UHGV virus genome: UHGV-0125682
Length of the DNA stretch: 64,000 nucleotides
Strand: one strand, 5' to 3'
Source: a virus
Below are positions 36,012-56,457 of this stretch, piece after piece. Both the position numbers and the translations under genes were made by a program. The notes below the pieces were generated by a model that saw only the letters and a program-made list of their open reading frames with translations, made no database searches and was not told where the DNA came from. The stretch's first letter is position 1; each line of letters opens with the position of its first letter.

Positions 36012-37049
36012 TTACCAGAGCTTCGCGGCGTACTGCGTTTGGGGGAATGTGTATCCGTAACGTTCTTCGATTGCTTTGCCGTATTTTTTACGAGCTTCAT
36101 TCAGTTTAATGCCGGTCAGGTCGTCTCCAGAGGCCATCATTACGTCTAACAATTCCAGATCCATTTTATCCAACCTTGCCATTGCTTCACGTGATGTACG
36201 TATCTTACGCTCAATGATATGGCGAATAGCCGGATCGGCATCCTCCAGCATCTTAGCGGATTTCTGCTTAAGGCTTTCATTGCGAATATCGATGTTCCTT
36301 AAGATGTACGACTTCGCAACGTAGCTTGGCTGGTGTTTTTCCAGGTCACGAACACGATATAAGTTAAAATCGCCGAGAAGGCTGCATGGTACCGATTCGA
36401 CGCCAGAATAAATTGTAATGCTCCGGCGTTCACCAACATTATTGACAACGGGGATCGTTGTCTTCGGTAGTCTTGCGAAAACCAATGCGCCATGTGCGCC
36501 AACTCTAAAGCGAGAAAGGGCATTGCTGCCTTCGATGTTTGTTGTCAGCACAACATCTGTATATGCCTCTTTACGCGCCCGGTAGATCTCGCCTTCAGGC
36601 TCAGCTTCAAAGAAGCGCTGTTCTTCTTCAAGAGCACCTACGATTTGAGAAAAAACCCTATTTTTCAGGCTTTTCTTTATGATTTTGTCGTATTTTTTTA
36701 GCAATTGTTCACGTGTAAATGTACGTGTTGTTGTAGCGCTTTGCACAACGACATGCGTGCTTTGATTGGTGTCCTCAATGATGAATGGGATCGGAGAATA
36801 TACAGACTCAACAATGTTCGACGCTTTGCCGTCGGCATCGCGGCACATGTCAACGAAGGCTTTCCATTCAGCAAGACATTTTTCAGCTTCTTCTAATATG
36901 TTTTGGTCATGCGTTAATGCAACATGGCGGAATTCCTCGCCAGCATAACTGGTATCATGGAAAACAGAGTTTGCGACCACCAGCTCTTTCCACCGTTCAG
37001 CGGTTTGCAGGAACCGTTTGTACTCTTTCTCGATCGACTTCTTACTCAT
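36012..37049 (-). CDS. Putative C1-type immunity repressor (by position between pacB and rox)
   Basis: 345 aa; divergent from dre; operator-like motif 12 bp upstream of its start. Confidence 0.4.
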   Translation of the reverse strand: MSKKSIEKEYKRFLQTAERWKELVVANSVFHDTSYAGEEFRHVALTHDQNILEEAEKCLAEWKAFVDMCRDADGKASNIVESVYSPIPFIIEDTNQSTHVVVQSATTTRTFTREQLLKKYDKIIKKSLKNRVFSQIVGALEEEQRFFEAEPEGEIYRARKEAYTDVVLTTNIEGSNALSRFRVGAHGALVFARLPKTTIPVVNNVGERRSITIYSGVESVPCSLLGDFNLYRVRDLEKHQPSYVAKSYILRNIDIRNESLKQKSAKMLEDADPAIRHIIERKIRTSREAMARLDKMDLELLDVMMASGDDLTGIKLNEARKKYGKAIEERYGYTFPQTQYAAKLW

Positions 37050-37060
37050 TATTCCTACTC

Positions 37061-37078
37061 GATTTAGTTTTCTAACAT
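37061..37078 (-). promoter_or_regulatory. Operator-like motif (GATTTAGTTTTCTAACAT)
   Basis: Recurring motif immediately upstream of putative repressor gene. Confidence 0.45.
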
Positions 37079-43602: not shown

Positions 43603-43953
43603 ATGCACAATAACGTTCTCAATGTTAGCCGTTCAATTCAGACAATCAGAGACTGCACCAGTGTGGTGGCATCAATCCCATTGCGAAACAGCATAGACGA
43701 ACTGCAAATTCGTGTATTGAATCCGAATCAGGCTAATAAGCAATTGCGCTTTATTTTGACGCTGAAAAGTGAAACAGAGGGGATAAAGCACAGCGTAAAA
43801 GTGTTTTCTGAGGCCATTCTGCTTAATGGGAAGCTCCGGCATCTGGTAAGGCCAGAACGTCAATATCCTGACGTCCTGGCGCGTGAAAAAGACCTTCTTT
43901 CTGAAGTTCAGGATAGGGTGATCGATTTCGTCAAATGCTATCCCCTGCATTGA
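43603..43953 (+). CDS. Hypothetical protein (possibly LexA-regulated)
   Basis: 116 aa; divergent from humD across the LexA box. Confidence 0.5.
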   Translation: MHNNVLNVSRSIQTIRDCTSVVASIPLRNSIDELQIRVLNPNQANKQLRFILTLKSETEGIKHSVKVFSEAILLNGKLRHLVRPERQYPDVLAREKDLLSEVQDRVIDFVKCYPLH

Positions 43954-44222
43954 GGGCAGGTGTTCCCTTCCGCAAAGTAGGGAAAACTGCTATCAAGTTC
44001 ATCACACCATCTGCGATGGTCGTAGCACCAAAACGCCTCCCACGGTGCACGGAAATACTTCATCCACCAGGACACTCGATCAGGTATATCTGCTGGTGGC
44101 AGTTCTTCTGGCAATAATTTGCCTGATAATTCCCTTTCCGCCCGCGACAGCATTTTTTTGAGGCTCGCGTTCTCTTTTTCAAGCTCATCTACGCGCACCT
44201 GTAATTCAGCTTTCGTTGGCAT
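43938..44222 (-). CDS. Hypothetical protein with C-terminal Cys cluster
   Basis: ~94 aa from MPTKAELQ...; ends ...CPQCRG. Confidence 0.4.
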   Translation of the reverse strand: MPTKAELQVRVDELEKENASLKKMLSRAERELSGKLLPEELPPADIPDRVSWWMKYFRAPWEAFWCYDHRRWCDELDSSFPYFAEGNTCPQCRG

Positions 44223-45711
44223 GGTCCGCCTCATGCTTTTCAGCCACCAGCGGCAATAAAGCCCTGGCCATCTTATGAACCAATAGTGCATCAATAATGC
44301 CAAGCGTATGCCCCGGCTTAATGTTTAATGCCGCCTCAAGGTGACACCTTTCCAGGCCACTTTTCTCGGCTTGTTTATGATGATCTGGTGTAATAACGTC
44401 GCCCAAAACACGGCTAATTCTTTCTCGTAATTGCTGGGTGCCAGCACACTTGATCGCTGTATCGTGGAGACGGTTAACCAGTTCGCGATAAACATGCGGC
44501 TTAATTCGGATACGTTCACCGGTGACGCCCTTTCCTGGTGCTGGCACCGAACTATCCGGAATATCCGGATAGTTGCCTGCCAGTCTACGCAAAACGGCCT
44601 TAACAGCCTCAATACGGTCATCATCGCAATTTTCCAGCGTATCTATGCGATCGAGCATGATGATGGCGTTATCAATATCAGGATTGCCGGTCCACTCATT
44701 ACCGCGATTGGATTCGGCAGCCTGGTTGCCGCGTACTGGTTGATTATCGGCTTTACCCAGTCTGTCGTTGCTGCATGAATGCCCTTCCAGCAAGGCCAAT
44801 GCTTGTCGCATGAAATACGCAATATGTTTGCCGTGGTAATCGTCTTCATCGATGTGAAAAGCGATACTGCGGATGTATTCAATTGCGTTTTCAATGGCCT
44901 CCGGCGTTATCGGCGCTGACATATTTTGATTTTGGAGTGCCAAGACGCGACTGGCATCCTCAACGTTCTTCACTGCATCTGCGCAGTAGTTATAGCGATT
45001 GCATTCCACTAACTTCTGCTTGAGATTTTCAATTGCTTGCGCGACATCAGCCTGTATTTCCGGAACTGGCGGAACGGCTGTCTGCTGCTCTCGAACGTCA
45101 TTAGTCGCTATCGGTTCTGCTGCCAGCTGACTGGCATATTTGTTAATGGTAACGATAAGCTCTTGCTCGGCCTCATCCAGACAATCACCGATACCTCGCC
45201 TGTCACCGTCAAAATCATCGAAATCGGCACGAATCTTGGCAACCTTCTGGATTGCGGACAACACCTCACTAGGAATTACCGGATAGTTGGTTGACGTTTC
45301 CGCGATTTCCCGAAAATTATTGGTTGACGAATTCTTGTTTTCCCGAAAGTTTCCGGACTGAAGCATGGCTTCGCGGCAATCGTTCCAGCCTGTAGCGTAT
45401 GCAGCCGCTTTGCTGCTGCCTTCAACTGGCGCATCCTGCCAATACATTTCTTCCGGCACTACCTGCACCTGAGGGGTGGCGTAGAGTGGAATTCCTCCCC
45501 CTCCACCAGAAAATTCATTGCGAGCGTTATACTCACGACCATCTGCGTCATCACGCATCCACGCCACCGGTTCTGCTTCCAGCGATGCCAGCGCGATACG
45601 AAACACATTGGCAAGCAGGCTGTCTGAAGATTGGTTATCGTGCGCCGGGTCGCTCAGGAAGCCTGTGATGAATGATTTAATCTCCGCACGTTCTTTGGTA
45701 ATAGTGGTCAT
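44206..45711 (-). CDS. Hypothetical protein; C-terminal module shared with 54184-54798
   Basis: 501 aa; Gly5 run; C-terminal ...KPHVYRELVNRLHD...GTQQLRERI... Confidence 0.55.
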   Translation of the reverse strand: MTTITKERAEIKSFITGFLSDPAHDNQSSDSLLANVFRIALASLEAEPVAWMRDDADGREYNARNEFSGGGGGIPLYATPQVQVVPEEMYWQDAPVEGSSKAAAYATGWNDCREAMLQSGNFRENKNSSTNNFREIAETSTNYPVIPSEVLSAIQKVAKIRADFDDFDGDRRGIGDCLDEAEQELIVTINKYASQLAAEPIATNDVREQQTAVPPVPEIQADVAQAIENLKQKLVECNRYNYCADAVKNVEDASRVLALQNQNMSAPITPEAIENAIEYIRSIAFHIDEDDYHGKHIAYFMRQALALLEGHSCSNDRLGKADNQPVRGNQAAESNRGNEWTGNPDIDNAIIMLDRIDTLENCDDDRIEAVKAVLRRLAGNYPDIPDSSVPAPGKGVTGERIRIKPHVYRELVNRLHDTAIKCAGTQQLRERISRVLGDVITPDHHKQAEKSGLERCHLEAALNIKPGHTLGIIDALLVHKMARALLPLVAEKHEADHANES

Positions 45712-45721
45712 GTGTTACTCC

Positions 45722-45985
45722 TTAACCCGCAGTGCTTTCAACTGATGAGGGGAACAAAATCTTTTCATCAAACCCTGCATTCATATCATGAACAGCAACA
45801 CACCAATCCATCGACGAACGATTATCAAGAGCCTCCATGATTTCATCCATGCGGCGCAGGTCATACAGGTAAATGCTTTTATCGCCAATGGTGTAAAAGC
45901 CAATTTTTTTCGGTGATGGACAGCGATCAAGAACGTCCTGTAATTCGTTCAACCATGCCCGTTCTTTTTTTGTTAAAGTTGCCAT
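45722..45985 (-). CDS. Hypothetical protein
   Basis: 87 aa from MATLTKKERAWL...; RBS AAGGAGA. Confidence 0.5.
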   Translation of the reverse strand: MATLTKKERAWLNELQDVLDRCPSPKKIGFYTIGDKSIYLYDLRRMDEIMEALDNRSSMDWCVAVHDMNAGFDEKILFPSSVESTAG

Positions 45986-45986
45986 A

Positions 45987-46175
45987 TCACTCTCCTTTAG
46001 TGCGCAAATGGTTTTTCCAGCGGTTTTGCGCCGCGCTGGGCTTTTTGCAAAAACCACAATCCATCATCCCGTAATATTTCATCAACCCCATCCGTCGGTT
46101 GCTGAGTCTCACCCACTGCCAGACGCCAGGAGCGTTTCTACGAACTAACAGAATCTTTGCTTTACGGTTTTTCAT
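45987..46175 (-). CDS. Hypothetical small basic protein
   Basis: 62 aa ORF. Confidence 0.3.
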   Translation of the reverse strand: MKNRKAKILLVRRNAPGVWQWVRLSNRRMGLMKYYGMMDCGFCKKPSAAQNRWKNHLRTKGE

Positions 46176-46347
46176 CGCTTTGCTCTCCTGCGTCTCTTTG
46201 CTGCTCGTCGTGCCGCTGCAATACCGGTATGGCGGCGCTTTGGTGCCGGGATGATGTTGTCAGCCATCAGGACATACGGCTTTGCAATTAGCGCAGAAGC
46301 CCAAAAACGAGTCGGGTACGGTAACAAGCCGATACATGCCACACGCA

Positions 46348-47109
46348 TTACTCACCTCCTTTGATGCGAATGCCTGCAGCGCGGATTGCAGCGATGACTT
46401 CAGAAACTTTGTATGCCATTACCGTTTGGTAATCATCGTGAAAATCTGTTCGATGAAGCATGCTGCTACGTTCCGGGAGCGATATTTCCCGAGCATCCAG
46501 TTCCTTAACGCGTTCCTCCAGTTCGTAGACCCTGCATTGTTCTCTATCATCAATCAGATATAACCCAAGACATTCGCTTTCTACCCAACCGCCAAAATCA
46601 TGATCGTAACGCTCACATGAAAACTCACCGTCACCGTCCTTTGTTGGAATGGTGTAACTATCTAATGGGCCACCATATGTCGGCACATTTCCCAATGTTG
46701 GATGCTCAATCCACATGAAAAATGCACGTCCGGTTATTGGGCAAATATCTGGCCGCCATTGGTTACGAACAGCCTTGGTTTCGGATAATTCTTCAGCGTG
46801 TTGTTTTACTTCCTCAAGCTCAACTCTCAGCTTCCCTACCGTTAGCGCAATATCCTCGTTCTCCTGATCGCGGCGTTTTATGTATTGCTGGTTTCTTTCC
46901 CGTTCATCCAGAAGCGCCAAGACGGTAGCCGGATTGGCTGCGGCGATGAATTCAGCATCACGAGATTCGTTTTCACTGAACACCATAGCTATTTGCTCAT
47001 GGTTTATGCCGTCAGTGGAGTAAATCTCATCGTCGAATTCAACAGCCCACTTACCTTTCGTAGCCTTCTCTGCCGCCTCACGCAGTGCCTGATAGTCAAT
47101 CTTGCTCAC
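46348..47109 (-). CDS. Hypothetical protein (MSKIDYQALREAAE... N-terminal family, Ea22-like)
   Basis: 253 aa; N-terminus shared with 47847-48032. Confidence 0.55.
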   Translation of the reverse strand: MSKIDYQALREAAEKATKGKWAVEFDDEIYSTDGINHEQIAMVFSENESRDAEFIAAANPATVLALLDERERNQQYIKRRDQENEDIALTVGKLRVELEEVKQHAEELSETKAVRNQWRPDICPITGRAFFMWIEHPTLGNVPTYGGPLDSYTIPTKDGDGEFSCERYDHDFGGWVESECLGLYLIDDREQCRVYELEERVKELDAREISLPERSSMLHRTDFHDDYQTVMAYKVSEVIAAIRAAGIRIKGGE

Positions 47110-47410
47110 TGGCAGCCTCCTTTGCCGGGATTTCTAACTTTTGAGTGGTTGTATCAAATTCAAACAACTTAACCACGTCATCAAACAGGACATAATCACC
47201 ATCAGGATCTTCAGTCATATCTGCGCCACAATCCTGACCGCACGAGTCGCAACCATCCATATCAAGCTCGTATCGCTTCAGGTTTGCGATATTTGATAAA
47301 TTCAGCGCCAGTACAGCCAGGTCATAAACCTCTTCGGCAGTGACATCGCTGTTCAGTCCCATTTCATGGCGATATATGATTTTTTCTACCCGTTGTTTTG
47401 TGATTGTCAT
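47096..47410 (-). CDS. Hypothetical acidic protein
   Basis: 104 aa; overlaps neighbours by a few nt. Confidence 0.45.
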   Translation of the reverse strand: MTITKQRVEKIIYRHEMGLNSDVTAEEVYDLAVLALNLSNIANLKRYELDMDGCDSCGQDCGADMTEDPDGDYVLFDDVVKLFEFDTTTQKLEIPAKEAASEQD

Positions 47411-47850
47411 TTTTGCTCACCTCCCTGTTCTTCCAGAAAAATACGCATAGCCTCAAGCATCTCTTCGGTGTCATACGGTGACAACTTGTCACGCAGGATG
47501 TGTTCAATGCTGTTAATGAACTTGCGGATTGCTTTGCGTTCAATTTCAGCCAGGAAAGCGTCGGTGGCTGACATATTTCCTGTTGCCTTCATGGCCTTCA
47601 AAATAACCAGAACGCCATCTCGCCCAACCACCTCAGCGATAACCTCAGTGTTGTCGCCAACAACATCGCAGAATGCCTGAACTGCCTTACGAGCCAGCTC
47701 ATTCTCCACTGCCAGCGCCGCGCACTTGGCCTCAAGAGCGGCAACCACTTCCTGATGGTCTTTGTACTTAACGTATGAGCCGGAGATGTCATCACCTTCG
47801 GTGTTTAGCCATGCGTCATTGCAATTCACTGCGTAGGTTCTGATGCTCAT
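47407..47850 (-). CDS. Hypothetical protein, ATDAFLAEI...EQ(L/I)RKGG paralogue family
   Basis: ~147 aa from MSIRTYAV...; motif shared with 51553, 52191, 53392 genes. Confidence 0.5.
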   Translation of the reverse strand: MSIRTYAVNCNDAWLNTEGDDISGSYVKYKDHQEVVAALEAKCAALAVENELARKAVQAFCDVVGDNTEVIAEVVGRDGVLVILKAMKATGNMSATDAFLAEIERKAIRKFINSIEHILRDKLSPYDTEEMLEAMRIFLEEQGGEQK

Positions 47851-48032
47851 GTTGATGCTCTCCCGCCCCTGACAGACGCCAGGCCAGTCAATAAAGTATC
47901 CGCACAATGCCTACCCTCAGACGTGCGCGCAGGATAAATGCCGTTATGACCCGGCAAAATATATGCTACCCATTCATCTTGCGTTGCCTGTTCCGCCGCC
48001 TCGCGCAGTTCTTGATAGTTAATTTTGCTCAC
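47847..48032 (-). CDS. Short ORF with Ea22-like leader fused to unrelated sequence (possible remnant)
   Basis: GTG start; first 22 aa match N-terminus of 46348-47109, then divergent. Confidence 0.3.
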   Translation of the reverse strand: MSKINYQELREAAEQATQDEWVAYILPGHNGIYPARTSEGRHCADTLLTGLASVRGGRAST

Positions 48033-48720
48033 TGGTTGCCCCCTGAATACGCTTAAACTCGATTACCCACACCCAAGGATTAGCGTTCCAACTATCTTCG
48101 CCATAAATTGATTTCCATAGGCTACGGAAACATGGGTAATGCTTATCGCCAATGAGGGTCGATTCTGTTGGTGCGCCCTCAGCCCTTGCATCGCATTCGC
48201 TGATATCGTTCAACCGCTCAACGCGCACGTTGGTAATTTCCAGAAGAATGCGCGATGCCCAGCGCGGCATGTGAATTGATGGACACCACCCGCCATCAAA
48301 TTTTTCATTCACAGTGTGAGGTTTCCAGTCGGCATCATCGGGTATCGACCACAAGCCGTAATCACCCGGCTTTTGCTCACAACTGGCCCGATAAATCCTT
48401 GCTGCGTTCTTCTCATCGCCACGACAAAGGTTGTCGTTCCAGTCCACACTGCAACCATCCTCATTGCCTAATATCGCCCACGCCTCACGGACCCATATGC
48501 GATCACCAACGTTACCGAACGGGCATAAACCATGTTCAGGTGCATCCATAACGTGGGTATAGACACCATTGCGTTTCTTTGTCGGTTTACGGATAACCAG
48601 GCAGTTATCGGCCCTGACATTTTTTACAGGTCGGCGAGTCTGCGTCTTCCTTCCTTCGAGGATGGCCCTGACCATCTCATCGTTAAAAATCATCCCGCGT
48701 TCTTTCATTTTTTGATCCAC
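48019..48720 (-). CDS. Conserved phage protein (MIFNDEMVRAILEGRKTQTRR N-terminus)
   Basis: 233 aa. Confidence 0.55.
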   Translation of the reverse strand: MDQKMKERGMIFNDEMVRAILEGRKTQTRRPVKNVRADNCLVIRKPTKKRNGVYTHVMDAPEHGLCPFGNVGDRIWVREAWAILGNEDGCSVDWNDNLCRGDEKNAARIYRASCEQKPGDYGLWSIPDDADWKPHTVNEKFDGGWCPSIHMPRWASRILLEITNVRVERLNDISECDARAEGAPTESTLIGDKHYPCFRSLWKSIYGEDSWNANPWVWVIEFKRIQGATSEQN

Positions 48721-48724
48721 CTCA

Positions 48725-49720
48725 TCAGTTATTGAAAGTGATCACTCCGCGCTCGATGGCGAAGTCAAAAAGCTGGTTAGCGGCTACGTAAAGGCGTATG
48801 CCATGTGCTTTTTCCCATGCCCGGACATCGTTTTCTGCGCTTCTGGCGCAGTCATCGCAAAGAGGAACAGCCCAGCGGTCGTGTTCGTTTAACGAGCGGG
48901 CGCGGTACATGAACGGGTGGTTAACTTTGCCACCGCATCCGATGCACGGACGAGAAACCACAAACCGGAGATAAGCCGGGCTTTTACCGAGGACCGCTTT
49001 TGGTCGGCGCATATAAAGCAGGCCGGAATCCTCATCTACAGACAGGTTGACGATCTGCTCTGCGGTTATGTCCACCAGCTCGCGGGTACTGTGCTCCCAG
49101 GTGATATCTGATTCTTTCAGCGTACCGGTAGGGATTTCAGTTTTTGGCTGACAAAATGCAATGCGACCGGCTTCATCTGGCAGCTCATCTTTCAGATTCC
49201 GGCGAATGGCCCAAAAAGTGAGTTCAACCATGCTCAGATCGCGTTCTGGCGGTAGTTTTAACTCGCTCGCAGCCCAGTTCATAACCCAGTTGGCACGATT
49301 CAGGGATAACTGGTCGTCCAGCTTGCTGTACCCCTTCATCATGTATTCCGCATCATGCTTCCAGCACAGGCGAACGGCAGAGCCGTTATAGAAATGAGTG
49401 GTTAGCTGGTGGCTGCAATCGCGCTTATCGTGCGCCTGGCAATCGTGGATATTGGAACTTACCCAATGAACAAGCGAATCTTCACCGCCCAACGCGTTAA
49501 ATACGCGCTCGCTTTGAAAAAACGGTTTCAGAGACTGGTTGGCAACCAGCGAATAATTCAGATCCACTACGCCATCTGGCGTGTTTTCAGCCTGTTCACG
49601 CGGAAGTGGGGAGATAATGAAACGGCGACCTACGCCAATGTAGTTACTGGTGGGCTTGTCTACCGGAAAGACAGCCACACCAGCTCCGTTTACGAAATGA
49701 GGTGTGATTATTGCACTCAT
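48725..49720 (-). CDS. Hypothetical protein, possibly DUF968-like
   Basis: 331 aa; Cys/His cluster ...RPCIGCGGKVNHPF...CDDCARS... Confidence 0.45.
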   Translation of the reverse strand: MSAIITPHFVNGAGVAVFPVDKPTSNYIGVGRRFIISPLPREQAENTPDGVVDLNYSLVANQSLKPFFQSERVFNALGGEDSLVHWVSSNIHDCQAHDKRDCSHQLTTHFYNGSAVRLCWKHDAEYMMKGYSKLDDQLSLNRANWVMNWAASELKLPPERDLSMVELTFWAIRRNLKDELPDEAGRIAFCQPKTEIPTGTLKESDITWEHSTRELVDITAEQIVNLSVDEDSGLLYMRRPKAVLGKSPAYLRFVVSRPCIGCGGKVNHPFMYRARSLNEHDRWAVPLCDDCARSAENDVRAWEKAHGIRLYVAANQLFDFAIERGVITFNN

Positions 49721-49762
49721 AATGTATACCGACTCTGTTTTGTTCCGAGCGGTAAAATAATA

Positions 49763-49793
49763 TGTTAGAAAACTAAAATCAATGTTCTAACAC
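49763..49793. promoter_or_regulatory. Operator-like motifs (TGTTAGAAAACTAAAAT plus TGTTCTAACAC)
   Basis: Recurring motif between two genes of the leftward operon. Confidence 0.45.
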
Positions 49794-49817
49794 ATTTTGA
49801 GTGCGTAAATGATTTGA

Positions 49818-50510
49818 TCAGACTTTAAGCTGCCCTCCCTTCACCTGCATTAGCGTCAGATTTCCGCAAAAAACCGCGCCCGTGTCTATGTAGTGCTGAT
49901 TCCAGTATGCTTTTGGTCTTCGTACCGGTGTGTGCCCAAAGATAAAGCGATCTGCGCCTGTGATTTCTCCACCAATGCCATCTATCGAATCACCGACGCG
50001 ACTGCGCGACCAGACAACATCAAAAAGCGACACATCCTTACCGAACTGGTACTCTCCACCTGGATAGTCGGCATGGGCTATAACGATAGTTTCATGCCCG
50101 GTGTTCAGCTCAATGATATAGGGAAGACGTCTTACCAGCTCCACCAGCGCCCTGGCTAATATTTCCCGATCAGCGTCCAGCATGAAGAACCATTGACCGC
50201 CATTCATTAGCCAGTTATTCACATTGCCTGCGGGACTTAACGCATCGATCATTAATCGCTCGTGGTTTCCCATAACCGACCGAAACCAGGGCATCTGCAA
50301 TAGCTCCAGGCATTCAACATTTTCGGTGCCGCGATCGATAAGGTCGCCAACCGATATCAGTAAATCCTGCGCCGGGTCAAAATCCACACGATGGAGTTCA
50401 TTCATAAGTAGGGTGTAGCAACCGTGCAAATCACCAACAACCCATATGTTTCTGTAGCCTGAACCATCAATACGGCTATATAAATTCACTTCATGCAGCG
50501 CCTGGTTCAT
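49818..50510 (-). CDS. Ser/Thr protein phosphatase (lambda-phosphatase family)
   Basis: GDLHGC, GDLIDRG, GNHE metallophosphatase motifs. Confidence 0.85.
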
Positions 50511-50818
50511 GCGGCAACCTTCTCCCGCAGCCAGATACAAACCGGGCCATCTTCAGTGTCATGAATAGAGCCAACAAACCATCCTTCGCCCGCTGGTCGC
50601 TCTGGTTCCCAGGCGGCAATATCGGGACCATCTGCGTCCAGATTAAAATCATCTTCATCCATACTGCGAATAGTCCACTGAAGATTATTTTCCTTCATCC
50701 AGGCGTCAAATTCCTCAGTGGATATATATTCACGACCTGCGCAAAACTTTTCATACTCCGGATGTGTCCAGCAGCCATATTCATCACGTTCTACCGGCAT
50801 TTCTTTAATTGTGCTCAC
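50507..50818 (-). CDS. Hypothetical protein
   Basis: 103 aa. Confidence 0.45.
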
Positions 50819-51039
50819 TCTTCATCCTCCAAGTCGGCAACGGCATCCATCACATCAGAACCGCGAATAAACTCAAAAGCACGGCAAGCCATTTCAAACA
50901 CCTGTTGTTCTTGCGGATGCGGTGACTCCCAATACTTAAAACCAGGTCGATGCTCGTAACCCATCATGGAATAAAAATCGCCAGCAAGTTCAATCGCGGC
51001 ATCAACAAGTTCGCGATTTGTCATCGTCTGTTCTGTCAT
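50815..51039 (-). CDS. Hypothetical protein
   Basis: 74 aa. Confidence 0.4.
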   Translation of the reverse strand: MTEQTMTNRELVDAAIELAGDFYSMMGYEHRPGFKYWESPHPQEQQVFEMACRAFEFIRGSDVMDAVADLEDEE

Positions 51040-51311
51040 TTTGTTTTCTCCTGTCTGAACATCACTATCATCAGGTCGCCTTTTGTCGCTATCCTCGCTG
51101 TTGTGCCTGGTTCAATGCTGCCAAGTTCAAATGCGTCATAGAACGCTTCTAATGCCTTCAGGCGTAGTTCCTGTTTGCGCCGTTTTTTCCACTGTTTCAG
51201 GAAAATGGAACCCAGCCATCGCCATGTACGGGACATGATGTAAAGCCAACCGAGAAGTGCCAGACCGGTATTTAGGGCCGTATCGAGCGTTATCGTGGTG
51301 TCGATATTCAC
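51036..51311 (-). CDS. Hypothetical membrane protein
   Basis: 91 aa with TM segment. Confidence 0.4.
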   Translation of the reverse strand: MNIDTTITLDTALNTGLALLGWLYIMSRTWRWLGSIFLKQWKKRRKQELRLKALEAFYDAFELGSIEPGTTARIATKGDLMIVMFRQEKTK

Positions 51312-51556
51312 TGTGGTGGCTCCTGCTTTTCTGCCTTTAATACCATGCGAGAACCATCATCCAGCTCCCAATTAATTTCACCGCCTTCAGCCATGACTAG
51401 ATGCCAAACGAGTTGTGCGGCCTCGTTGGTTACATCACGACCGCGATCATTGCCGACACGACGTTTTGTTCCATCCCCTAAGTCACGCATTTTTGCCAAC
51501 ACGATGGTTTTTGATAGCGGTGAAAAACCAAGCTGTAGTCGTGCGGTATTACTCAC
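51308..51556 (-). CDS. Hypothetical protein
   Basis: 82 aa. Confidence 0.4.
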   Translation of the reverse strand: MSNTARLQLGFSPLSKTIVLAKMRDLGDGTKRRVGNDRGRDVTNEAAQLVWHLVMAEGGEINWELDDGSRMVLKAEKQEPPQ

Positions 51557-52194
51557 TGTTTGCCTCCTTTTCGAAGCTGGTCAGCGAACCTATCAGCTGC
51601 ATCCGCGCAAGCAGAAGCAACGGAATCAAAAAATGGATCATCTCCGGTATCGCGCATCGTCAAAGCGAATGCCTCCACCCCTTGTGCCTGTATTTCTACA
51701 AGGTATGCCTTAGATGTAGTGCTTTTCGCCTCGCCTAATTCGTTATGAGCGATGTTCGCTATACATGCGATGTCTATATCTGGATGATTAATTGGGCAAT
51801 GGCTAAGAATTGCCTCAAGTGCTGCTTTTTTGCTTTGGCATTCCGCCACCATCGCCCCGCAATTGCTTTCATATTCGGCAATACGCTGTTTAGCAGCCTC
51901 CAGCTCAACACGCAGCTTCTCAAGCGTTAGAGCCATCTCCATGTTCTCGTCCAGCAGTTCAATCACATCAGGATCGCTATCATCAACTACTGTTATGCGC
52001 GATTTTTTGTAATGCTCGTCAGCATAAGTTCGTCCAGTTTTGAAGCATCCGTCGTCCTCCATGCCGGAACAGGCATAAACAACATGTGATCCAGATATGC
52101 GCTGCATTGACATTTCCTCGCCACAAACAGAGCATTTAGGCGCTGGTTTCGGTGAAAAACGTTCACGTAACGTATGATAGTAAAGCTCGCTCAC
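51553..52194 (-). CDS. Hypothetical protein, N-terminal zinc ribbon, paralogue-family C-terminus
   Basis: 213 aa; CSVCG...YACSG; ends ...FADQLRKGGKQ. Confidence 0.5.
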   Translation of the reverse strand: MSELYYHTLRERFSPKPAPKCSVCGEEMSMQRISGSHVVYACSGMEDDGCFKTGRTYADEHYKKSRITVVDDSDPDVIELLDENMEMALTLEKLRVELEAAKQRIAEYESNCGAMVAECQSKKAALEAILSHCPINHPDIDIACIANIAHNELGEAKSTTSKAYLVEIQAQGVEAFALTMRDTGDDPFFDSVASACADAADRFADQLRKGGKQ

Positions 52195-52988
52195 TGGCTG
52201 CCTCCTTTGCGAAGCTGTTCAGCGATATCTTCGAGAACGCCATCAGAGAATGAGCGGTCAAAATCGCCTTCCCGCGCATTAGCCATAAACTCAGTAGAGG
52301 TAAGAATCATCCGGGCAATATCCGCGGCGTTCTTCGCAGTATCATCAATAAAACCAGCTTCCCAAGCAGCCAGCATTCTGTTCGCCACAAAGTAAGCGCC
52401 CTCCTTGCGTGCTTCAGTCTTCACTTCATCCAGGAAAGTGTCGGTCGCAGGAGTGGTTTTTTGTGGTGATAGGGCGATACGAATTGTTTCAAGAGCTGGA
52501 TCTATTTCCACTGTTGGCACTTTGATAAAACCAAGCTGCACGCCATTCATAATGAACGTGCGGCGATCCTCACATATCGCCTTCAGTCTCGCATTCTCCG
52601 CAGCCAGCGCCGCGCGATTACCCTCCAGCTCTGCAATGCGCTGTTTTGCGGTATCAAGTTCAATCGATAATTTTTCCAACTGCTCTTTATGCTTCTTATA
52701 TTCCTGATATGCGTGCCAGGACTGACCTTTGCGCACACTATCAGTAATATCAGTAATCTGTTCTGGTGTTAGCGTAGTCAGTGGCTGTGCTGGGAAAATC
52801 AGCACTTTCCCGGAATCCCAATCAAAACCAGCGTGAATTGACTGAACCTCAACTGAGGGTGTTGAACCAATGCTGCCAGGCGAATGAACAACGATCGTTA
52901 CATCCATATCGCGACGATGGCTGTGGTTGTTGGACAAAATACGATTCACCAACTCAGAAAATTTGGAGAATTTCATGCGGAGCCTCAA
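52191..52988 (-). CDS. Hypothetical protein, paralogue family
   Basis: 265 aa; ...ATDTFLDEV...AEQLRKGGSQ. Confidence 0.5.
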   Translation of the reverse strand: MRLRMKFSKFSELVNRILSNNHSHRRDMDVTIVVHSPGSIGSTPSVEVQSIHAGFDWDSGKVLIFPAQPLTTLTPEQITDITDSVRKGQSWHAYQEYKKHKEQLEKLSIELDTAKQRIAELEGNRAALAAENARLKAICEDRRTFIMNGVQLGFIKVPTVEIDPALETIRIALSPQKTTPATDTFLDEVKTEARKEGAYFVANRMLAAWEAGFIDDTAKNAADIARMILTSTEFMANAREGDFDRSFSDGVLEDIAEQLRKGGSQ

Positions 52989-53395
52989 TATGCAAAATAG
53001 ACCGTTGCCACGCCGTTATAGTGATCAAACGATACGGCGTTTACTTCATAGCTGGCAGGGAGCTTCGATCCGAGAACATATCCGGGCCACGTTTTCCATG
53101 GAATTTCTCTACTCTCACTATCCCCATATACCGTACATCCAAGTGAACCTACAGCTTCATTAGAACGCGTGCCGCACGTTATGAATCCCAGATTTTGCTT
53201 ACTGCTCTTAATGGTGATTGAGTGAACGCTGGCTGATGCATTAGCAGCACGCTGTGCCTGTTGGTTTGCGATATTCGCAGAGTTCGCAGCAGCTACAGCA
53301 GCCGTAGTCGCGGCGGTAGAGGCTACAATAGCTGCTGAAGCATGCACTTGTTGGATATTCACCAACAATGCCGCGACAAAAATCATCTTCTTCAC
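52985..53395 (-). CDS. Secreted protein (signal peptide)
   Basis: 136 aa; MKKMIFVAALLVNIQQVHA. Confidence 0.5.
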   Translation of the reverse strand: MKKMIFVAALLVNIQQVHASAAIVASTAATTAAVAAANSANIANQQAQRAANASASVHSITIKSSKQNLGFITCGTRSNEAVGSLGCTVYGDSESREIPWKTWPGYVLGSKLPASYEVNAVSFDHYNGVATVYFAY

Positions 53396-53880
53396 TTGTC
53401 AGCTCCTTTGCGAATCTGTTCCGCCCATTCTTCAAGGGATTTCTCCGCATATTCACCGGACAGGCCATCAATCGGGTGCGGTTCATTAGCCAACTCTTCT
53501 TTCGCTGACAGAATCATGCGTGTAACGTCGAAAACTTCACGTAAAGACTTATTGATAAATCCGTGGTTGAAAGCAGCAGCAAGACGGCTTGCGGTATAGT
53601 TAATCCCCTCGTTGCGAGCCTCCGCACGAATTTCAGCCAGAAAAGCATCGGTGGCTGGAGTTTCGCTGTGGTGCAGGGCATCGTTGATAATCATTGCAGC
53701 AACTCCGGCCTGCCCTGCATCCGTGACCGACACATGCTCAAGAGTTACAGCCATTGCATGTTTCAGCCCAGCATTCTCCGCCGCCAGCGCCGAGCGTTCT
53801 TTCTCAAGTCGGGAAATTTCCGTTACATACTCAGCGTTACGCTCTGCCAGTTGTGCTGGCGTTAAACCTTCAGACTTCAT
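53392..53880 (-). CDS. Hypothetical protein, paralogue family
   Basis: 162 aa; ...ATDAFLAEIRAEARNEG...AEQIRKGADK. Confidence 0.5.
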   Translation of the reverse strand: MKSEGLTPAQLAERNAEYVTEISRLEKERSALAAENAGLKHAMAVTLEHVSVTDAGQAGVAAMIINDALHHSETPATDAFLAEIRAEARNEGINYTASRLAAAFNHGFINKSLREVFDVTRMILSAKEELANEPHPIDGLSGEYAEKSLEEWAEQIRKGADK

Positions 53881-54187
53881 GTACTCTCCTTTCGAAATAA
53901 ACGTACTGATTAATCATGCTCAAGGGCATTTCGAGTTTTTCTGCGATCTCACGGCGGGGAACACCACACCGATGAAGCTGCCGTGCCAGTTCTATATCGC
54001 CCTGCCGGTATTTGGCTGACGGGTGAAAGTCTCCTTTCAGAATCATGCAGATCCGCAGTTGCCGCGCTTTGGTTCTGACAGCACTACCGGTACGCCCGAT
54101 CAGCCTCCCAATACTCTCGACTGTCATAGTCCCGGCGCACTGGCGGAGTATCATGATTTCTGCCCTTCCCCATCCCCGCCAGCTCAC
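53870..54187 (-). CDS. Putative DNA-binding protein (HTH)
   Basis: ~95-105 aa; HTH-like ...VPRREIAEKLEMPLSMINQYV. Confidence 0.45.
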   Translation of the reverse strand: MSWRGWGRAEIMILRQCAGTMTVESIGRLIGRTGSAVRTKARQLRICMILKGDFHPSAKYRQGDIELARQLHRCGVPRREIAEKLEMPLSMINQYVYFERRVHEV

Positions 54188-54798
54188 GCAGAACTCCTTC
54201 TAACCAAAAGAACGCCATCTTCAGAAACAACGTTGCAGGACTTCAGGTAATTCATTGCCTCTTTCGGTAATGGATTCTTTGGATCGGCGTTTGCCAGGGA
54301 TTTCGATAACCTCATGATAAATTTGATCATTACCTTCTGGCGGAGCTTGTGCTCATGAGATAAAGACAGGTAATAGGAAATGGTATGGGCTAAACGCTCA
54401 CGAAGCTGTTCTGTGCCGTGATATACAGCAGCGATATCACGCAGTGCATTGACCAGTTCCCGGTAAATATGCGGAGCAACCTGGCATTCAATGTTGGTTG
54501 GTGACTCATAAATTACAGTCAGCCCCAGCTTTTCAGCCAGCGCGTGCTCTGCACGAGCACCAATCGATTCCTCCCATCGATTGAGCAAGTAGATCGCATC
54601 AGCAGAACGCACCATTGCCAGGCAAATATCCATGTATTCACTCTGACAAAGGCCACCAGGTAACACAGCTGGATTCAGAACGATATGCCCTTCAGCCATC
54701 AGCTCGCTCGCTTTCGCATTAAACGCCGCACGGTTGTAGTCTGGATAACCAGTCATCGGCCCCGCGATGTAAATTTTCAAAACACGTCTCACCATCAA
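54184..54798 (-). CDS. Nucleoside 2-deoxyribosyltransferase-like (DUF4406-type) protein with extra C-terminal module
   Basis: KIYIAGPMTGYPDYNRAAF...GHIVLNPA...; C-terminal ...PHIYRELVNALRD...GTEQLRERL shared with 44206-45711. Confidence 0.55.
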   Translation of the reverse strand: MMVRRVLKIYIAGPMTGYPDYNRAAFNAKASELMAEGHIVLNPAVLPGGLCQSEYMDICLAMVRSADAIYLLNRWEESIGARAEHALAEKLGLTVIYESPTNIECQVAPHIYRELVNALRDIAAVYHGTEQLRERLAHTISYYLSLSHEHKLRQKVMIKFIMRLSKSLANADPKNPLPKEAMNYLKSCNVVSEDGVLLVRRSSA

Positions 54799-54989
54799 AA
54801 TTTCCCCAGCATCGTGACGAAAAACATCAGCACGGCAAAAAGCTCAATACCTAATTCAAGTAGCGCCAACGCCCCGAAAAAAAACACATAGAACAGGCCA
54901 ATCTCATTCACAGATGGCTGGTGGATCGCACTTAAAGCTATAAGCATCATGTCCTCCAAACATTTATCAGTGATGATATTAATGTTTTG

Positions 54990-55006
54990 TGTTAGAAAAT
55001 CAATTT
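54990..55006 (+). promoter_or_regulatory. Operator-like motif (TGTTAGAAAATCAATTT)
   Basis: Between the leftward operon and ref-like gene. Confidence 0.45.
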
Positions 55007-55067
55007 TGAATATCTAACTGCTTTGATCAATCATAGAAAAATCGCTGAAAAGTAAGAGGCAGCCATC

Positions 55068-55646
55068 ATGCAGAAACAGAGCTATTGGGAGAAACAGAGA
55101 CAAAAAGCCATGCAAAAATTGGCTGACCCAGCCTGGCGAGAGGAACAAAGGGCAAAGCGCCTTCAACAAGCTCAACGCCAGCAGCAGCGAGCGAGAGAAA
55201 AAGCCGCATCGCCTGAATATCGGCAAAAGAAAATTGAAAAAGCAAAGCAATATGAACAGCGGAGAAAAGATAAAGCTGTATCCGCTCCGTCCAAAAAAAC
55301 ACGCACGTCACGCGGCCTGAAAGGCAGATCACTCACAGCCGATGAACGCCGGATACAGACCGCTATCGGTGCTCTCCCCTGCATTGCCTGCCATATTCAC
55401 GGGCAACATAGCCCAGTGGTATCCCTGCACCATATCTTCGGGAGAACGGCAGAGAACGCGCATAAATATGTCCTCCCTTTGTGTAAATGGCACCACCAGT
55501 ACGCAGCGCCAGCCGAGGTCAGAGAACAATATCCCTGGCTGGTCCCTGTTCATGCTGACGGAAAAATAGGCGGAAAAGCAGATTTCATGCGGCACAATGC
55601 CGATGAAATGACGTTGTATCAGATGGCGATTGAGTTGATAAATTAG
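55068..55646 (+). CDS. ref: HNH-type nuclease, P1 Ref-like
   Basis: 192 aa; K/R/Q-rich N-terminal ~95 aa then ...CIACHIHGQH...HHIFG...PLCKWHHQ. Confidence 0.5.
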   Translation: MQKQSYWEKQRQKAMQKLADPAWREEQRAKRLQQAQRQQQRAREKAASPEYRQKKIEKAKQYEQRRKDKAVSAPSKKTRTSRGLKGRSLTADERRIQTAIGALPCIACHIHGQHSPVVSLHHIFGRTAENAHKYVLPLCKWHHQYAAPAEVREQYPWLVPVHADGKIGGKADFMRHNADEMTLYQMAIELIN

Positions 55647-55657
55647 TTTTCTAACAT
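55640..55657 (-). promoter_or_regulatory. Operator-like motif (AAATTAGTTTTCTAACAT)
   Basis: Exact consensus instance just after ref stop. Confidence 0.45.
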
Positions 55658-55976
55658 TTTAAGTTGAATTGAAAAACTCTCCGATGTACATTCACTACCG
55701 ATTGGCACACCGGTCAACTTTTTGAGACAAACTGTTTAGTTTTTCGTATTATTGCCTCCGCCATACCTATGGCGGTGCAATATAGGTGGCTGAAAAGCCC
55801 CCGTTGACTCACGGTGTTCCAGCCTTTATTGCGCCGCCACCAGACCGTGGAACAGTCGATGGCGGCTCCGAAAGCAAGGAGTCACAACACTATGAACAAC
55901 TACAGTCTTTTCCCATCACTCGTCTTCCACCACTCACGCGATAATCTGCATTCTTTGCTCGCGCCGGGGGTGTCAA

Positions 55977-56147
55977 AATGACTGTTCGCTACCTCAACTT
56001 TCAAATCAAGAACATTACTGGCGGTTGCTATGACTGGTTTGTCACTCTCGGAAAAGAAGTGATCACCGGGAAGCTGGATGAAGTGAAAGCTAAAGCAATG
56101 GCCTACGCCTGCAAGCAAGTCAGGAAGAAATCCGCCAAAGCATAAAA
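55977..56147 (+). CDS. Possible small protein (below ORF-track cut-off)
   Basis: 56 aa MTVRYLNFQIKNITGGCYDWFVTLGKEVITGK...; terminator-like hairpin downstream. Confidence 0.25.
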
Positions 56148-56457
56148 CACTGACTGTTGCGCCCTGGCATTATCGTGGGGTATATTTCTACGGCACCTTA
56201 GAAAAACGGGTGCCGGGATTGGAACCCCGGATAATGCAAAAGGCGACACAGACGCCGAAAGCGTCTTTTTTTGTGTCATGCCATCGCACAGCCATACGTA
56301 GCGTTTAGCTCAGAGATCAATGGTAGTGCTGGCTGGGCTGCCGAAAGGCAGGCCGGTTCCCTTTTGCGCCGGTAGTTCCAACCCAGTCAGTGCTACCGCC
56401 ATTGAGATTGGAACCTCACGCGGTAGCTCCTTAAATTAGCAAAAGGAGGCTGCCAAT

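Follow-up and report, generated by a model that had tools for sequence, protein, structure and literature searches.

The leftward early operon pmgL–pmgV of phage P1 (AF234172) leads into hot, humD, phd, and doc and carries the C1 operators Op82, Op83, Op86a,b, and Op88, of which the internal ones (Op83, Op86a,b, and Op88) have annotated promoters. Lytic growth requires hardly any of its genes. Deletion or CRISPRi data identify the pmgL–pmgV genes, including ppp, as mostly non-essential, with the two methods disagreeing on pmgN and pmgR (PMC10695390). In D6, orf88–orf105 (NC_050154 / MF356679, 76.7–84.8 kb) occupy a like position between ref and hot/humD/phd/doc. The exo-xis/ea and nin regions of lambdoid phages also contain small overlapping early genes, among them lambda-type phosphatase genes and Ead/Ea22 genes whose products combine a short N-domain, a coiled coil, and a variable C-terminal domain (PMC10834534). 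About 30% of the genes of P1-like phage-plasmids were recently exchanged (PMC10879196).

The stretch of viral DNA analysed here (64,000 nucleotides, hereafter the window) is identified by its sequence as a D6-like (P1-related) phage-plasmid, i.e., a plasmid prophage. Its leftward gene array is a presumably early, non-structural accessory "cargo" operon, the positional counterpart of the non-essential pmgL–pmgV operon of P1, and an ordinary case of a known region type. We consider it probable that this operon is repressed by a C1 protein of the D6 type.

Extent, gene content, and placement of the array

An earlier note on this DNA had described a tightly packed leftward array of about 20 genes between 45722 and 54798. 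The packing is confirmed, but these limits miss a small membrane-protein gene at one end (54795–54947) and 44206–45711 and 43938–44234 at the other. The array comprises 22 leftward ORFs within 54947–44206 and, with a probable 98-aa ORF at 43938–44234, about 23:

54795..54947, minus strand: first gene, 50-aa hydrophobic (membrane) protein, D6 orf88 homologue (phrog_8890, E 2.5e-33)
54184..54795, minus strand: DUF4406 protein, nucleoside 2-deoxyribosyltransferase-like N-domain (Pfam DUF4406, 116 bits; phrog_355)
53870..54187, minus strand: 105-aa putative HTH DNA-binding protein (phrog_323, E 1.3e-25; weak Sigma70_r4_2 match)
53392..53880, minus strand: 162-aa protein, coiled coil and C-module ATDAFLAEI…EQIRKGADK (phrog_614)
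52985..53395, minus strand: 136-aa protein, putative signal peptide, two Cys (phrog_8805, E 1.9e-86)
52191..52988, minus strand: 265-aa paralogue, distinct N-domain, coiled coil, C-module ending EQLRKGGSQ (phrog_6026)
51553..52194, minus strand: 213-aa Ead/Ea22-like protein, PF13935 N-domain, coiled coil, short C-module ending DQLRKGGKQ (Pfam Ead_Ea22, 48.5 bits)
51308..51556, minus strand: 82-aa DUF7446 protein (domain match)
51036..51311, minus strand: 91-aa DUF4752 protein (domain match)
50815..51039, minus strand: 74-aa protein (phrog_4132; DNA 88% identical to phiV10)
50507..50818, minus strand: 103-aa protein (phrog_1372)
49818..50510, minus strand: Ppp, lambda-type Ser/Thr protein phosphatase, 230 aa (1G5B, Metallophos)
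48725..49720, minus strand: 331-aa DUF968 protein, Cys/His clusters (Pfam DUF968, 153.7 bits; phrog_96)
48019..48720, minus strand: 233-aa protein homologous to the N-terminal portion of P1 PmgT (70% over 217 aa in tblastn; phrog_874)
47407..48032, minus strand: split Ead/Ea22-like gene, 61-aa and 166-aa ORFs (Pfam profile across both)
47096..47410, minus strand: 104-aa protein (phrog_3126; DNA 97% identical to Stx2c phage)
46348..47109, minus strand: 253-aa Ead/Ea22-like protein, different C-terminal domain (Pfam Ead_Ea22, 108.9 bits)
46172..46348, minus strand: 58-aa protein (phrog_13831)
45987..46175, minus strand: 62-aa ORF (PGAP hypothetical protein at the pGF4-B counterpart; DNA 99.5% identical to Stx2c phage)
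45722..45985, minus strand: 87-aa protein (phrog_1714; real start at Met25 of the listed ORF)
44206..45711, minus strand: 501-aa protein (last ~112 aa 95.5% identical to the P1 PmgT-C/PmgU module)
43938..44234, minus strand: probable last ORF, 98 aa, coiled coil and C-terminal Cys motif (putative coding)

Sixteen of the 20 real junctions are overlaps, 11 of them of the 4-nt ATGA/GTGA type, and most genes overlap by 1–14 nt. Three junctions are gaps of 1–10 nt, and a single gap exceeds 10 nt: it measures 97 nt and contains a 30-bp palindromic motif pair. The Shine–Dalgarno sequence of each gene sits inside the last codons of the preceding one, and the codons of a conserved RKGG protein tail (cgc aaa gga ggc) double as the next gene's ribosome-binding site. 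This overlapping arrangement is that expected for translational coupling. Each of the 19 ORFs compared with PHROGs has a match among its phage protein families, and PADLOC gave no matches; the cargo genes are accessory, not structural.

Several assignments of the earlier note stand. Its lambda-type phosphatase is Ppp, which matches the lambda enzyme 1G5B over its full length (E 1.5e-93) as well as Pfam Metallophos, contains the motifs GDLHG, GDLIDRG, and GNHE, and shares 85% aa identity with P1 Ppp. Its Cys/His-cluster protein is the DUF968 protein, annotated as 'HNH endonuclease' in D6 and 38% identical to P1 PdcB (E 4e-75). Its secreted protein is the product of 52985–53395, whose N-terminus (MKKMIFVAALLVNIQQVHA followed by SAA) reads, by eye only, as a Sec signal peptide. 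For the first gene, the phrog_8890 alignment begins at residue 5 of the longer ORF, and D6 orf88 measures 153 nt. PGAP labels the 53870–54187 protein 'DNA-binding protein' in pGF4-B. The 233-aa PmgT-N homologue possibly has an ASCH-like fold, as a weak PDB match to ASC-1 (E 0.0088) suggests. At the distal end, the gene of the 501-aa protein lies 10 nt downstream of its predecessor; the 98-aa ORF adjoins the convergent gene 43603–43953 (plus strand) on its downstream side, and its DNA is kept in related loci, with D6 differing there by an indel.

The order in D6, orf88 to orf105 followed by hot, humD, phd, and doc, is that of the window. Both share a frame consisting of orf88, the DUF4406 gene, orf90, the DUF4752 gene, two small genes, ppp, the operator pair, and the DUF968 gene, with ~95–97% DNA identity in the aligned parts. 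D6 is also the best phage match of the region (95.5% identity), but the alignment covers just 50% of the 9.1 kb; the highest coverage by any single record is 82%. The window stands apart by extra or different Ea22-like paralogues, the secreted 136-aa protein, the PmgT-N-like gene, and Stx-phage-derived genes, in place of which D6 has orf91, orf93, orf99, and orf101–103. P1 has the leftward early operon in the same neighbourhood, and Ppp, the PmgT N-part, and PmgT-C/PmgU are shared and collinear (tblastn). The earlier note would have been contradicted by the same genes occurring in syntenic order in P1: this is so for three of about 22, and the other 19 lack a homologue in the P1 segment. The DUF4406 protein shows 44% identity to P1 (tblastn) over aa 106–155, and its C-terminal module is common to the 501-aa protein and P1 PmgT-C/PmgU.

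Modular paralogues and mosaicism

Five modular Ead/Ea22-like paralogues are present, one of them broken by a 2-bp insertion. The earlier note had reported at least four that share a module running from ATDAFLAEI to RKGG. Their paralogy is supported by comparisons of 53392–53880 with 52191–52988 (E 7e-23), of 52191–52988 with 51553–52194 (E 1e-9), and of 53392–53880 with 47407–47907 (E 2e-4), but the tail is not uniform: the first ends in RKGADK rather than RKGG, and the fourth (47407–47907), unlike the others, in …EEQGGEQK. The first paralogue lacks the Ea22 N-domain, and many of its 4349 homologues are fused to PF13935. The sequence of the shared C-module matches no solved structure and thus does not match the NMR structure of the lambda Ea22 C-terminal domain (PMC10834534). 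In the broken gene, Pfam profile positions 1–45 fall in one ORF and 38–134 in the other. The insertion (47905–47906) is absent from eight related loci, and a 213-codon gene of pEC13-3 aligns as the intact counterpart; the split gene is either a pseudogene or the product of a sequencing error.

Direct DNA identity connects parts of the array with lambdoid phages. Segments 45981–46926 and 47102–47570 are 97–99% identical to an Stx2c-converting phage, and 53392–53659 is 96% identical to phiV10. Of the 7427 matching places in E. coli genomes, 6413 are chromosomal. The lambdoid character proposed in the earlier note is thus apparent in these segments and in the Ead/Ea22-like, DUF4752, DUF7446, and NinI-type phosphatase genes, but the operon sits at the pmgL–pmgV position. 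The contrast with the P1 core drawn in the note is not supported as phrased, and the operon is not alien to the P1 family: P1 has homologues of ppp, PmgT, and PmgU in order as well as C1 operators within its own operon, and D6 has 50% of the DNA. A stronger version of the lambdoid view would regard the array as a recent acquisition, an exo-xis/nin-type module alien to the P1/D6 backbone and controlled by antitermination instead of C1. The near-identical Stx and phiV10 segments would agree with such a capture, as would the Ead/Ea22 genes and NinI-type phosphatase typical of lambdoid early regions (PMC7093339). However, the frame (first gene, DUF4406, ppp, operator pair, DUF968, and PmgT/U-like genes) is kept in D6 and many D6-like plasmids and is collinear with P1, the region showed no exo, xis, int, or nin frame genes and nothing resembling N or nut, and putative D6-type operators flank and interrupt it. 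This makes a wholesale capture highly improbable. Control by a P1-family repressor would also differ from the lambdoid system of CI plus N.

Putative operator motifs and the C1-like repressor

The following elements are candidates for the control of the operon:

36012..37049, minus strand: c1-like prophage repressor gene, 345 aa, presumed trans-acting factor (NF041318 phage_rep_C1)
49763..49792, no strand assigned: putative internal divalent operator, two inverted 17-mers with 4-bp overlap
54988..55018, no strand assigned: putative operon-start operator pair in the divergent region between ref and the first gene (motif matches)

A 17-mer with the consensus TGTTAGAAAAnTAATTT (≤3 mismatches) has 13 matches in the window versus 0.88 expected. 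Its core TGTTAGAA also occurs 13 times (1.86 expected), a count reached in none of 100 shuffles. The D6 genome contains 16 matches to the 17-mer (about 1.5 expected), all 16 between annotated genes, although one extends 7 nt into the 3' end of ref. They adjoin c1, lpa, pmgS, repL, icd/ant, ref, the cre side, and hrdC/dmt, the loci at which P1 carries C1 operators. Given this enrichment and placement, the 17-mer is most likely the D6-type C1 operator. Its 3' half resembles the P1 operator, and the P1 consensus ATTGCTCTAATAAATTT (≤3 mismatches) has no match in the window. The c1-like gene scores only 25 bits against NF041318 (E 8.9e-6; cut-off 500), but its region is ~98% identical to the D6 c1 region, annotated as 'similar to P1 gene C1', and one operator copy (37061–37077) lies 11 nt upstream of it. 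A C1 only distantly related to that of P1 would fit a changed operator specificity.

The mid-operon, operator-like pair of the earlier note is thus recovered, at 49763–49792, and very probably represents a repressor operator. It consists of TGTTAGAAAACTAAAAT (49763–49779, plus strand) and TGTTAGAACATTGATTT (49776–49792, minus strand). The operon-start pair comprises TGTTAGAAAATCAATTT (54990–55006, plus strand) and, again offset by 13 nt, a degenerate site on the other strand; the counterpart of the pair in the related locus L023 is a perfect palindrome, TGTTAGAAATTCAAAATTGAATTTCTAACA. A second D6 pair, upstream of the hrdC/dmt genes, has the geometry of the internal pair. The latter is kept in D6 (one mismatch) and in ten related loci, where pair, leader, and DUF968 are all conserved and the sequence just upstream varies; L023 has an additional GC-rich hairpin in this variable stretch.

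The 30-bp palindrome might instead act as RNA, as a weak intrinsic terminator, a pause site, or a processing hairpin dividing the operon into a proximal and a distal half. It can form a 16-bp interrupted hairpin followed by UAUUUUA, and the 111-nt segment folds with z = -2.84 versus shuffles. On the other hand, its AU-rich stem contains few G-C pairs and did not pass the terminator scan, changes among relatives fall at degenerate positions of the 17-mer consensus, and the single, non-palindromic 17-mer copies found in gaps by c1, lpa, ref, repL, and others cannot form hairpins. We therefore give an RNA function very little credence and favour the operator.

Proposed regulation of the distal genes

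Whether the internal operator controls a promoter is a separate matter. The internal regulated promoter postulated in the earlier note is plausible because the pair lies in the only sizeable gap, but a consensus scan (≥9/12) gave no minus-strand promoter at either pair. Candidate hexamers reach only 7–8/12 and were read by eye: TTAGAA (49790–49785) and TAACAT (49767–49762) with a 17-nt spacer, or alternatively TTGATT (49782–49777) and TATTTT (49759–49754) with a 17-nt spacer, at the internal pair, and TTGATT (55003–54998) and TAATAT (54981–54976) with a 16-nt spacer (8/12) at the operon start. The palindrome could bind C1 without a promoter, as a roadblock or second lock within one transcription unit starting at ~54975. 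Besides the negative scan, a weak DUF968 Shine–Dalgarno sequence would be consistent with a single unit, and no terminator was found between ppp and DUF968 in the window, so that the distal genes may be served by plain read-through from the upstream promoter. Yet the 42 nt between the pair and DUF968 mirror the 40 nt at the operon start, the -10-like TAACAT with both key bases occurs only on the leftward strand of the palindrome, and the pair travels with DUF968 where the upstream gene differs. P1 provides parallels: PpmgR is annotated at Op86a, although Op86a,b are separate inverted sites 49 bp apart whereas the window pair overlaps, and the divalent Obanab (Op72a,b) consists of inverted, overlapping 17-bp C1 sites forming an imperfect palindrome that contains the -35 and -10 hexamers of P1ban. 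Obanab differs in sequence and slightly in geometry (11-nt offset, 6-bp overlap, 28 bp, versus 13 nt, 4 bp, and 30 bp), and promoter activity was demonstrated in P1 but is a prediction here. On balance, a single unit appears unlikely, and an internal C1-controlled promoter is preferred.

The D6-type C1 would then bind the 17-bp asymmetric operators in the plasmid prophage, and the two overlapping inverted pairs, each preceding the first gene of its leftward unit by ~40 nt and overlapping weak sigma-70-like hexamers, would keep the operon silent. Inactivation of C1 would allow leftward transcription through the ~23 genes, and the distal unit, DUF968 through the PmgT/U-like genes, would have a C1-controlled start of its own at the internal promoter. 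The pairs lie 1261 bp apart in L023, 4248 bp in the related locus L028, ~4.1 kb in D6, and ~5.2 kb in the window. The segment between them is a hypervariable cargo bay that swaps cassettes with lambdoid prophages.

Gene content and affiliation of the operon

The accessory operon described in the earlier note is real and was correctly observed. It is a tightly packed leftward array in which 22 minus-strand ORFs span 54947 to 44206, and all 19 ORFs scanned matched a phage PHROGs family. The limits first proposed, 45722-54798, miss genes at both ends, namely the first gene, which codes for a 50-aa membrane protein (54795-54947), and a 501-aa gene starting 10 nt after the last gene listed. Sixteen of the 20 real junctions overlap, 11 of these in the 4-nt ATGA/GTGA manner, and three others are gaps of 1-10 nt. 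The sole true gap, 97 nt long, lies between the phosphatase gene ppp and a DUF968 gene. The genes on either side of this gap, and a probable 23rd ORF, are:

49818-50510, minus strand: ppp
48725-49720, minus strand: DUF968 gene
43938-44234, minus strand: probable 23rd ORF (98 aa), last small ORF of the operon

The last small ORF also encodes 98 aa in the related viral-contig locus L061, and its annotated counterpart in Escherichia phage D6 (NC_050154), orf105, is shortened to 50 aa by an indel.

That the window belongs to a D6-like phage-plasmid is confirmed by its flanking genes, which on the left comprise those for a c1-like repressor and a cre-like recombinase, dut, doc, phd, and humD, and on the right ref, followed by the C4/icd/ant immunity region. 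D6 is also the best phage match of the 9.1-kb finding (50% coverage, 95.5% identity), and P1, P7, RCS47, and SJ46 match it over only approximately 10-20%. The best plasmid and E. coli genome records are non-mobilizable plasmids of approximately 90-95 kb, of which pGF4-B is closest (82% coverage, 95.6% identity); no identical record was found among the plasmids and E. coli genomes searched. Hits to D6-like plasmids in PLSDB number more than 1000. An Rfam scan of 43.5-56.5 kb gave no match within the operon, and its only matches, C4 and isrK, lie to the right of ref. They comprise a C4 antisense RNA at 56316-56403 (76.7 bits), a weaker second C4-like copy at 55765-55844 (40.2 bits, under the gathering score), and isrK at 56193-56271. 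The stretch 55765-56403 is the immI (c4-icd-ant) region, and a predicted C1-type operator just upstream of it (55640-55656) overlaps the ref stop codon.

The protein assignments of the earlier note hold well. The lambda-type Ser/Thr phosphatase matches 1G5B over its full length (E 1.5e-93; residues 10-226 on residues 3-219), its catalytic motifs GDLHG, GDLIDRG, and GNHE are intact, and Pfam Metallophos scores 56.9 bits. The Cys/His-cluster protein is a DUF968 protein (PF06147; 153.7 bits against a cut-off of 27.8) with 38% identity to P1 PdcB over 341 aligned positions (E 4e-75). The putative secreted protein is a 136-aa product with a signal peptide that, read by eye, is plausible for Sec export. 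The phosphatase fold is the sole functional clue among the cargo proteins: PADLOC found no defence-system match among the ten largest proteins, PDB sequence searches with the DUF968 and DUF4406 proteins and two Ea22-like proteins gave no match, and the PmgT-N-like protein retrieved only a marginal ASCH match.

Shared gene content and order with P1 pmgL–pmgV do not extend beyond Ppp, the N-part of PmgT, and PmgT-C/PmgU. In tblastn searches of all window proteins against this region (E up to 1e-3), these three homologues were collinear: Ppp itself (85% identity), a 233-aa protein similar to the PmgT N-part (70%), and the C-terminus of the 501-aa protein, similar to PmgT-C/PmgU (95.5%). A short module in the DUF4406 protein also matched. 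Separately, the operon's second and next-to-last genes, 54184-54795 (aa 106-155) and 44206-45711 (aa ~378-489), have in common a C-terminal module, H(V/I)YRELVN…GT(Q/E)QLRER, which also makes up the P1 PmgT-C/PmgU region.

The lambdoid flavour noted earlier is right for the cargo, because an Stx2c-converting phage matches 45981-46926 and 47102-47570 at 97-99% identity, phiV10 matches 53392-53659 at 96%, and matching places in E. coli genomes are mostly chromosomal (6413 versus 1014 on plasmids). The frame of the operon, however, is that of the P1/D6 family. A lambdoid exo-xis or nin region is set between exo and xis or in nin, under pL/pR and N control, whereas this operon is flanked by ref at one end and by a PmgT/U-like gene, hot, and humD at the other; none of the Pfam or PHROG matches of its ORFs is exo, xis, or int. 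Lambdoid-like cargo in such a frame agrees with the recent exchange of approximately 30% of genes in P1-like phage-plasmids (PMC10879196) and with the scoring of most genes from pmgL to pmgV in P1, ppp included, as dispensable for lytic growth (PMC10695390). The region is an early operon of a P1/D6-type plasmid prophage, mosaic, non-essential, and presumably under repressor control; it is of an ordinary, already understood kind.

Modular paralogues and their junctions

The proposed paralogue family is borne out by BLASTP (E values 7e-23, 1e-9, and 2e-4), but a modular description suits it better: three types of parts, namely an Ead/Ea22 N-domain (PF13935), a coiled coil, and a C-module, are combined in five genes. 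PF13935 (cut-off 27) scores 108.9 bits in 46348-47109, 48.5 in 51553-52194, and 48.7 in 47847-48032. The 162-aa and 265-aa paralogues gave no Pfam match to this domain and have only the coiled coil and the C-module in common with the family; fusion of the C-module to PF13935 is frequent among its database homologues. The shared C-module, ATDAFLAEI…EQLRKGG, occurs in these paralogues:

53392-53880, minus strand: C-module ending EQIRKGADK
52191-52988, minus strand: C-module ending EQLRKGGSQ
51553-52194, minus strand: short form
47407-47907, minus strand: C-module with a different tail

A 2-bp insertion at 47905-47906 (CA on the plus strand) divides one Ead/Ea22-like gene, 47407-48032, into ORFs of 61 and 166 aa. 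The insertion is missing in all eight related loci covering the site, and the gene is either a real pseudogene or the product of a sequencing error. The AlphaFold2 model of the 162-aa C-module protein, built on a 12-sequence alignment, is all-helical (mean pLDDT 55.8, pTM 0.31); this prediction is unreliable, and its quality does not suffice for a fold search. In lambda, Ea22 is an early protein that promotes lysogeny and forms tetramers; its C-terminal domain is variable (PMC7093339, PMC10834534). Related plasmids carry two to four Ea22-like genes.

The end of the C-module has a dual use. The codons for (L/I)RKGG (cgc aaa gga ggc) also serve the following gene as its Shine–Dalgarno sequence; the GTG start of that gene shares bases with the stop codon in the form GTGA. 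This cassette, AAAGGAGGCnGCCAGTGAGC, is repeated directly at four junctions (repeat families D2, D3, and D5), which suggests that translation is coupled from gene to gene in the operon. The cassette also supplies short identical stretches where genes meet, and one mosaic breakpoint in a comparison with the related plasmid pEC13-3 lies directly 3' of the ATDAFLAE codons. Direct repeats of 26-48 nt occur at the gene junctions 47106-47150, 48023-48048, 51547-51597, 52163-52235, and 53392-53436. They comprise the Shine–Dalgarno sequence, the GTGA start/stop, and the first codons of Ea22-like genes, and are possible substrates for cassette gain and loss.

A candidate D6-type C1 operator

The core TGTTAGAA is present in 13 copies in the window versus 1.9 expected. 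Alignment of the sites yields the 17-mer TGTTAGAAAAnTAATTT, with 13 matches in the window at up to three mismatches (0.88 expected) and 16 in D6. All 16 D6 sites fall between annotated genes, one of them overlapping the last 7 nt of ref.

Locations of matches to the 17-mer in D6
11-12 nt upstream of c1
Upstream of lpa; upstream of pmgS
Either side of repL; either side of ref
Adjoining cre; upstream of simB
Upstream of the hrdC/dmt genes; between ppp and the DUF968 gene

Taken together, the sites in the window and in D6 adjoin c1, lpa, pmgS, repL, icd/ant, ref, the cre side, hrdC/dmt, and ppp/DUF968. Both thus display the genome-wide scatter of operators at regulon loci that is a trait of the P1-family C1 regulon. 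The D6 locations largely correspond to the positions of the C1 operators in P1, some of which are given in the P1 annotation.

An operator of P1 specificity is ruled out as the identity of the motif, as the asymmetric 17-bp P1 consensus ATTGCTCTAATAAATTT has no match in the window at up to three mismatches. Only the 3' half of TGTTAGAAAAnTAATTT resembles the P1 site, a partial likeness expected in a heteroimmune relative. The candidate repressor is the product of a 345-aa ORF (36012-37049, minus strand), whose DNA shows ~98% identity to the c1 region of D6, annotated as 'similar to P1 C1'. It matches the profile NF041318 phage_rep_C1 over positions 8-245 with E 8.9e-6, but with 25 bits against a cut-off of 500. 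The absence of the P1 consensus and the distance of this C1 from that of P1 argue for a heteroimmune C1 with its own operator. This is the simplest reading, and binding of C1 to the sites is predicted from sequence. A literature search for the operator sequence returned nothing relevant.

Putative paired operators and the variable segment between them

The internal element at 49763-49792, in the ppp/DUF968 gap, consists of two sites in opposed orientation, offset by 13 nt and overlapping by 4 bp. The D6 pair upstream of the hrdC/dmt genes has identical geometry. P1 Obanab is of the same design but has an 11-nt offset, and the P1 site contains the ban promoter. This hrdC/dmt pair of D6 (NC_050154, 64116-64145), the second overlapping one in that genome, lies just beyond the right end of the window. 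Only 14 nt separate it from the hrdC-like start as annotated; this spacing leaves almost no leader, so either that start codon or the placement of the promoter may have to be revised. A homologous element at the operon start (54988-55018) combines one good and one degenerate site at an equal offset, and its counterpart in the viral-contig locus L023 is a perfect palindrome. Each pair stops short of the first ATG of its unit, by 40 nt at the operon start and by 42 nt at the internal site.

Enrichment of the 17-mer and the intergenic placement of its D6 matches make the motif pair a very probable operator, as the earlier note had proposed. A weak alternative is that the palindrome acts as an RNA element; in the transcript, an AU-rich hairpin followed by UAUUUUA would form. 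A consensus scan of the minus strand at both pairs found no promoter of at least 9/12. By eye, candidates are TTAGAA-17-TAACAT and TTGATT-17-TATTTT at the internal pair and TTGATT-16-TAATAT at the operon start. A terminator scan of the 97-nt gap found none, and the distal genes may rely either on an internal promoter or on read-through from upstream.

Relatives were restricted to contigs matching both the 30-bp pair and this region; an exact-match scan of viral contigs for the pair alone had given 71 loci, many of them probably chance matches in unrelated metagenomes. In a 10-locus alignment, conservation covers the internal pair, DUF968, and everything between them, and the stretch just upstream is variable; the 3' flank upstream of the pair in L023 differs and carries a GC-rich hairpin. 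The putative operator is therefore part of the unit led by DUF968. The spacing of the two pairs varies as well (1.26 kb in L023, 4.25 kb in the related locus L028, ~4.1 kb in D6, and ~5.2 kb in the window), which identifies the intervening segment as variable cargo. In L023 (IMG/VR contig 2908543018_000007), 30-bp palindromes at 378-407 and 1639-1668, 1261 bp apart, enclose just two small genes and ppp, and the hairpin sits between ppp and the second pair. The operon logic of P1 is alike: Op83, pmgN-O-P-ppp-pmgQ, then Op86a,b with PpmgR, and pmgR onwards.

A D6-type C1 operator, TGTTAGAAAAnTAATTT, in 30-bp palindromic pairs would bracket a hypervariable cargo bay, and any cassette inserted between the pairs would automatically come under repressor control. 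The conserved junction cassettes of 20-45 nt (…CGCAAAGGAGGCnGCCAGTGAGC…) encode a protein tail together with the ribosome-binding site and GTG start of the next gene. With these cassettes as recombination linkers, Ead/Ea22-like modules could be exchanged between phage-plasmids and lambdoid prophages. The joint proposal, of a previously uncharacterised C1 operator in bracketing pairs and of junction cassettes as recombination linkers, is tentative, and we consider it rather doubtful as a whole.

Current understanding is unchanged: this type of operon is known, as are the phosphatase, the Ea22-like genes, and mosaicism. The putative D6-type operator consensus, the operator-bracketed cargo bay, and the dual-use tail/ribosome-binding-site cassettes are modestly new points. 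What is gained for the D6 lineage of phage-plasmids is an operator consensus to work with and a provisional inventory of sites under repressor control. Such elements are frequent in E. coli and Salmonella, and resistance genes are present in some relatives. The data also indicate where foreign cargo may be inserted and silenced in the prophage, and illustrate gene flow between plasmid prophages and chromosomal lambdoid prophages, including Stx prophages.
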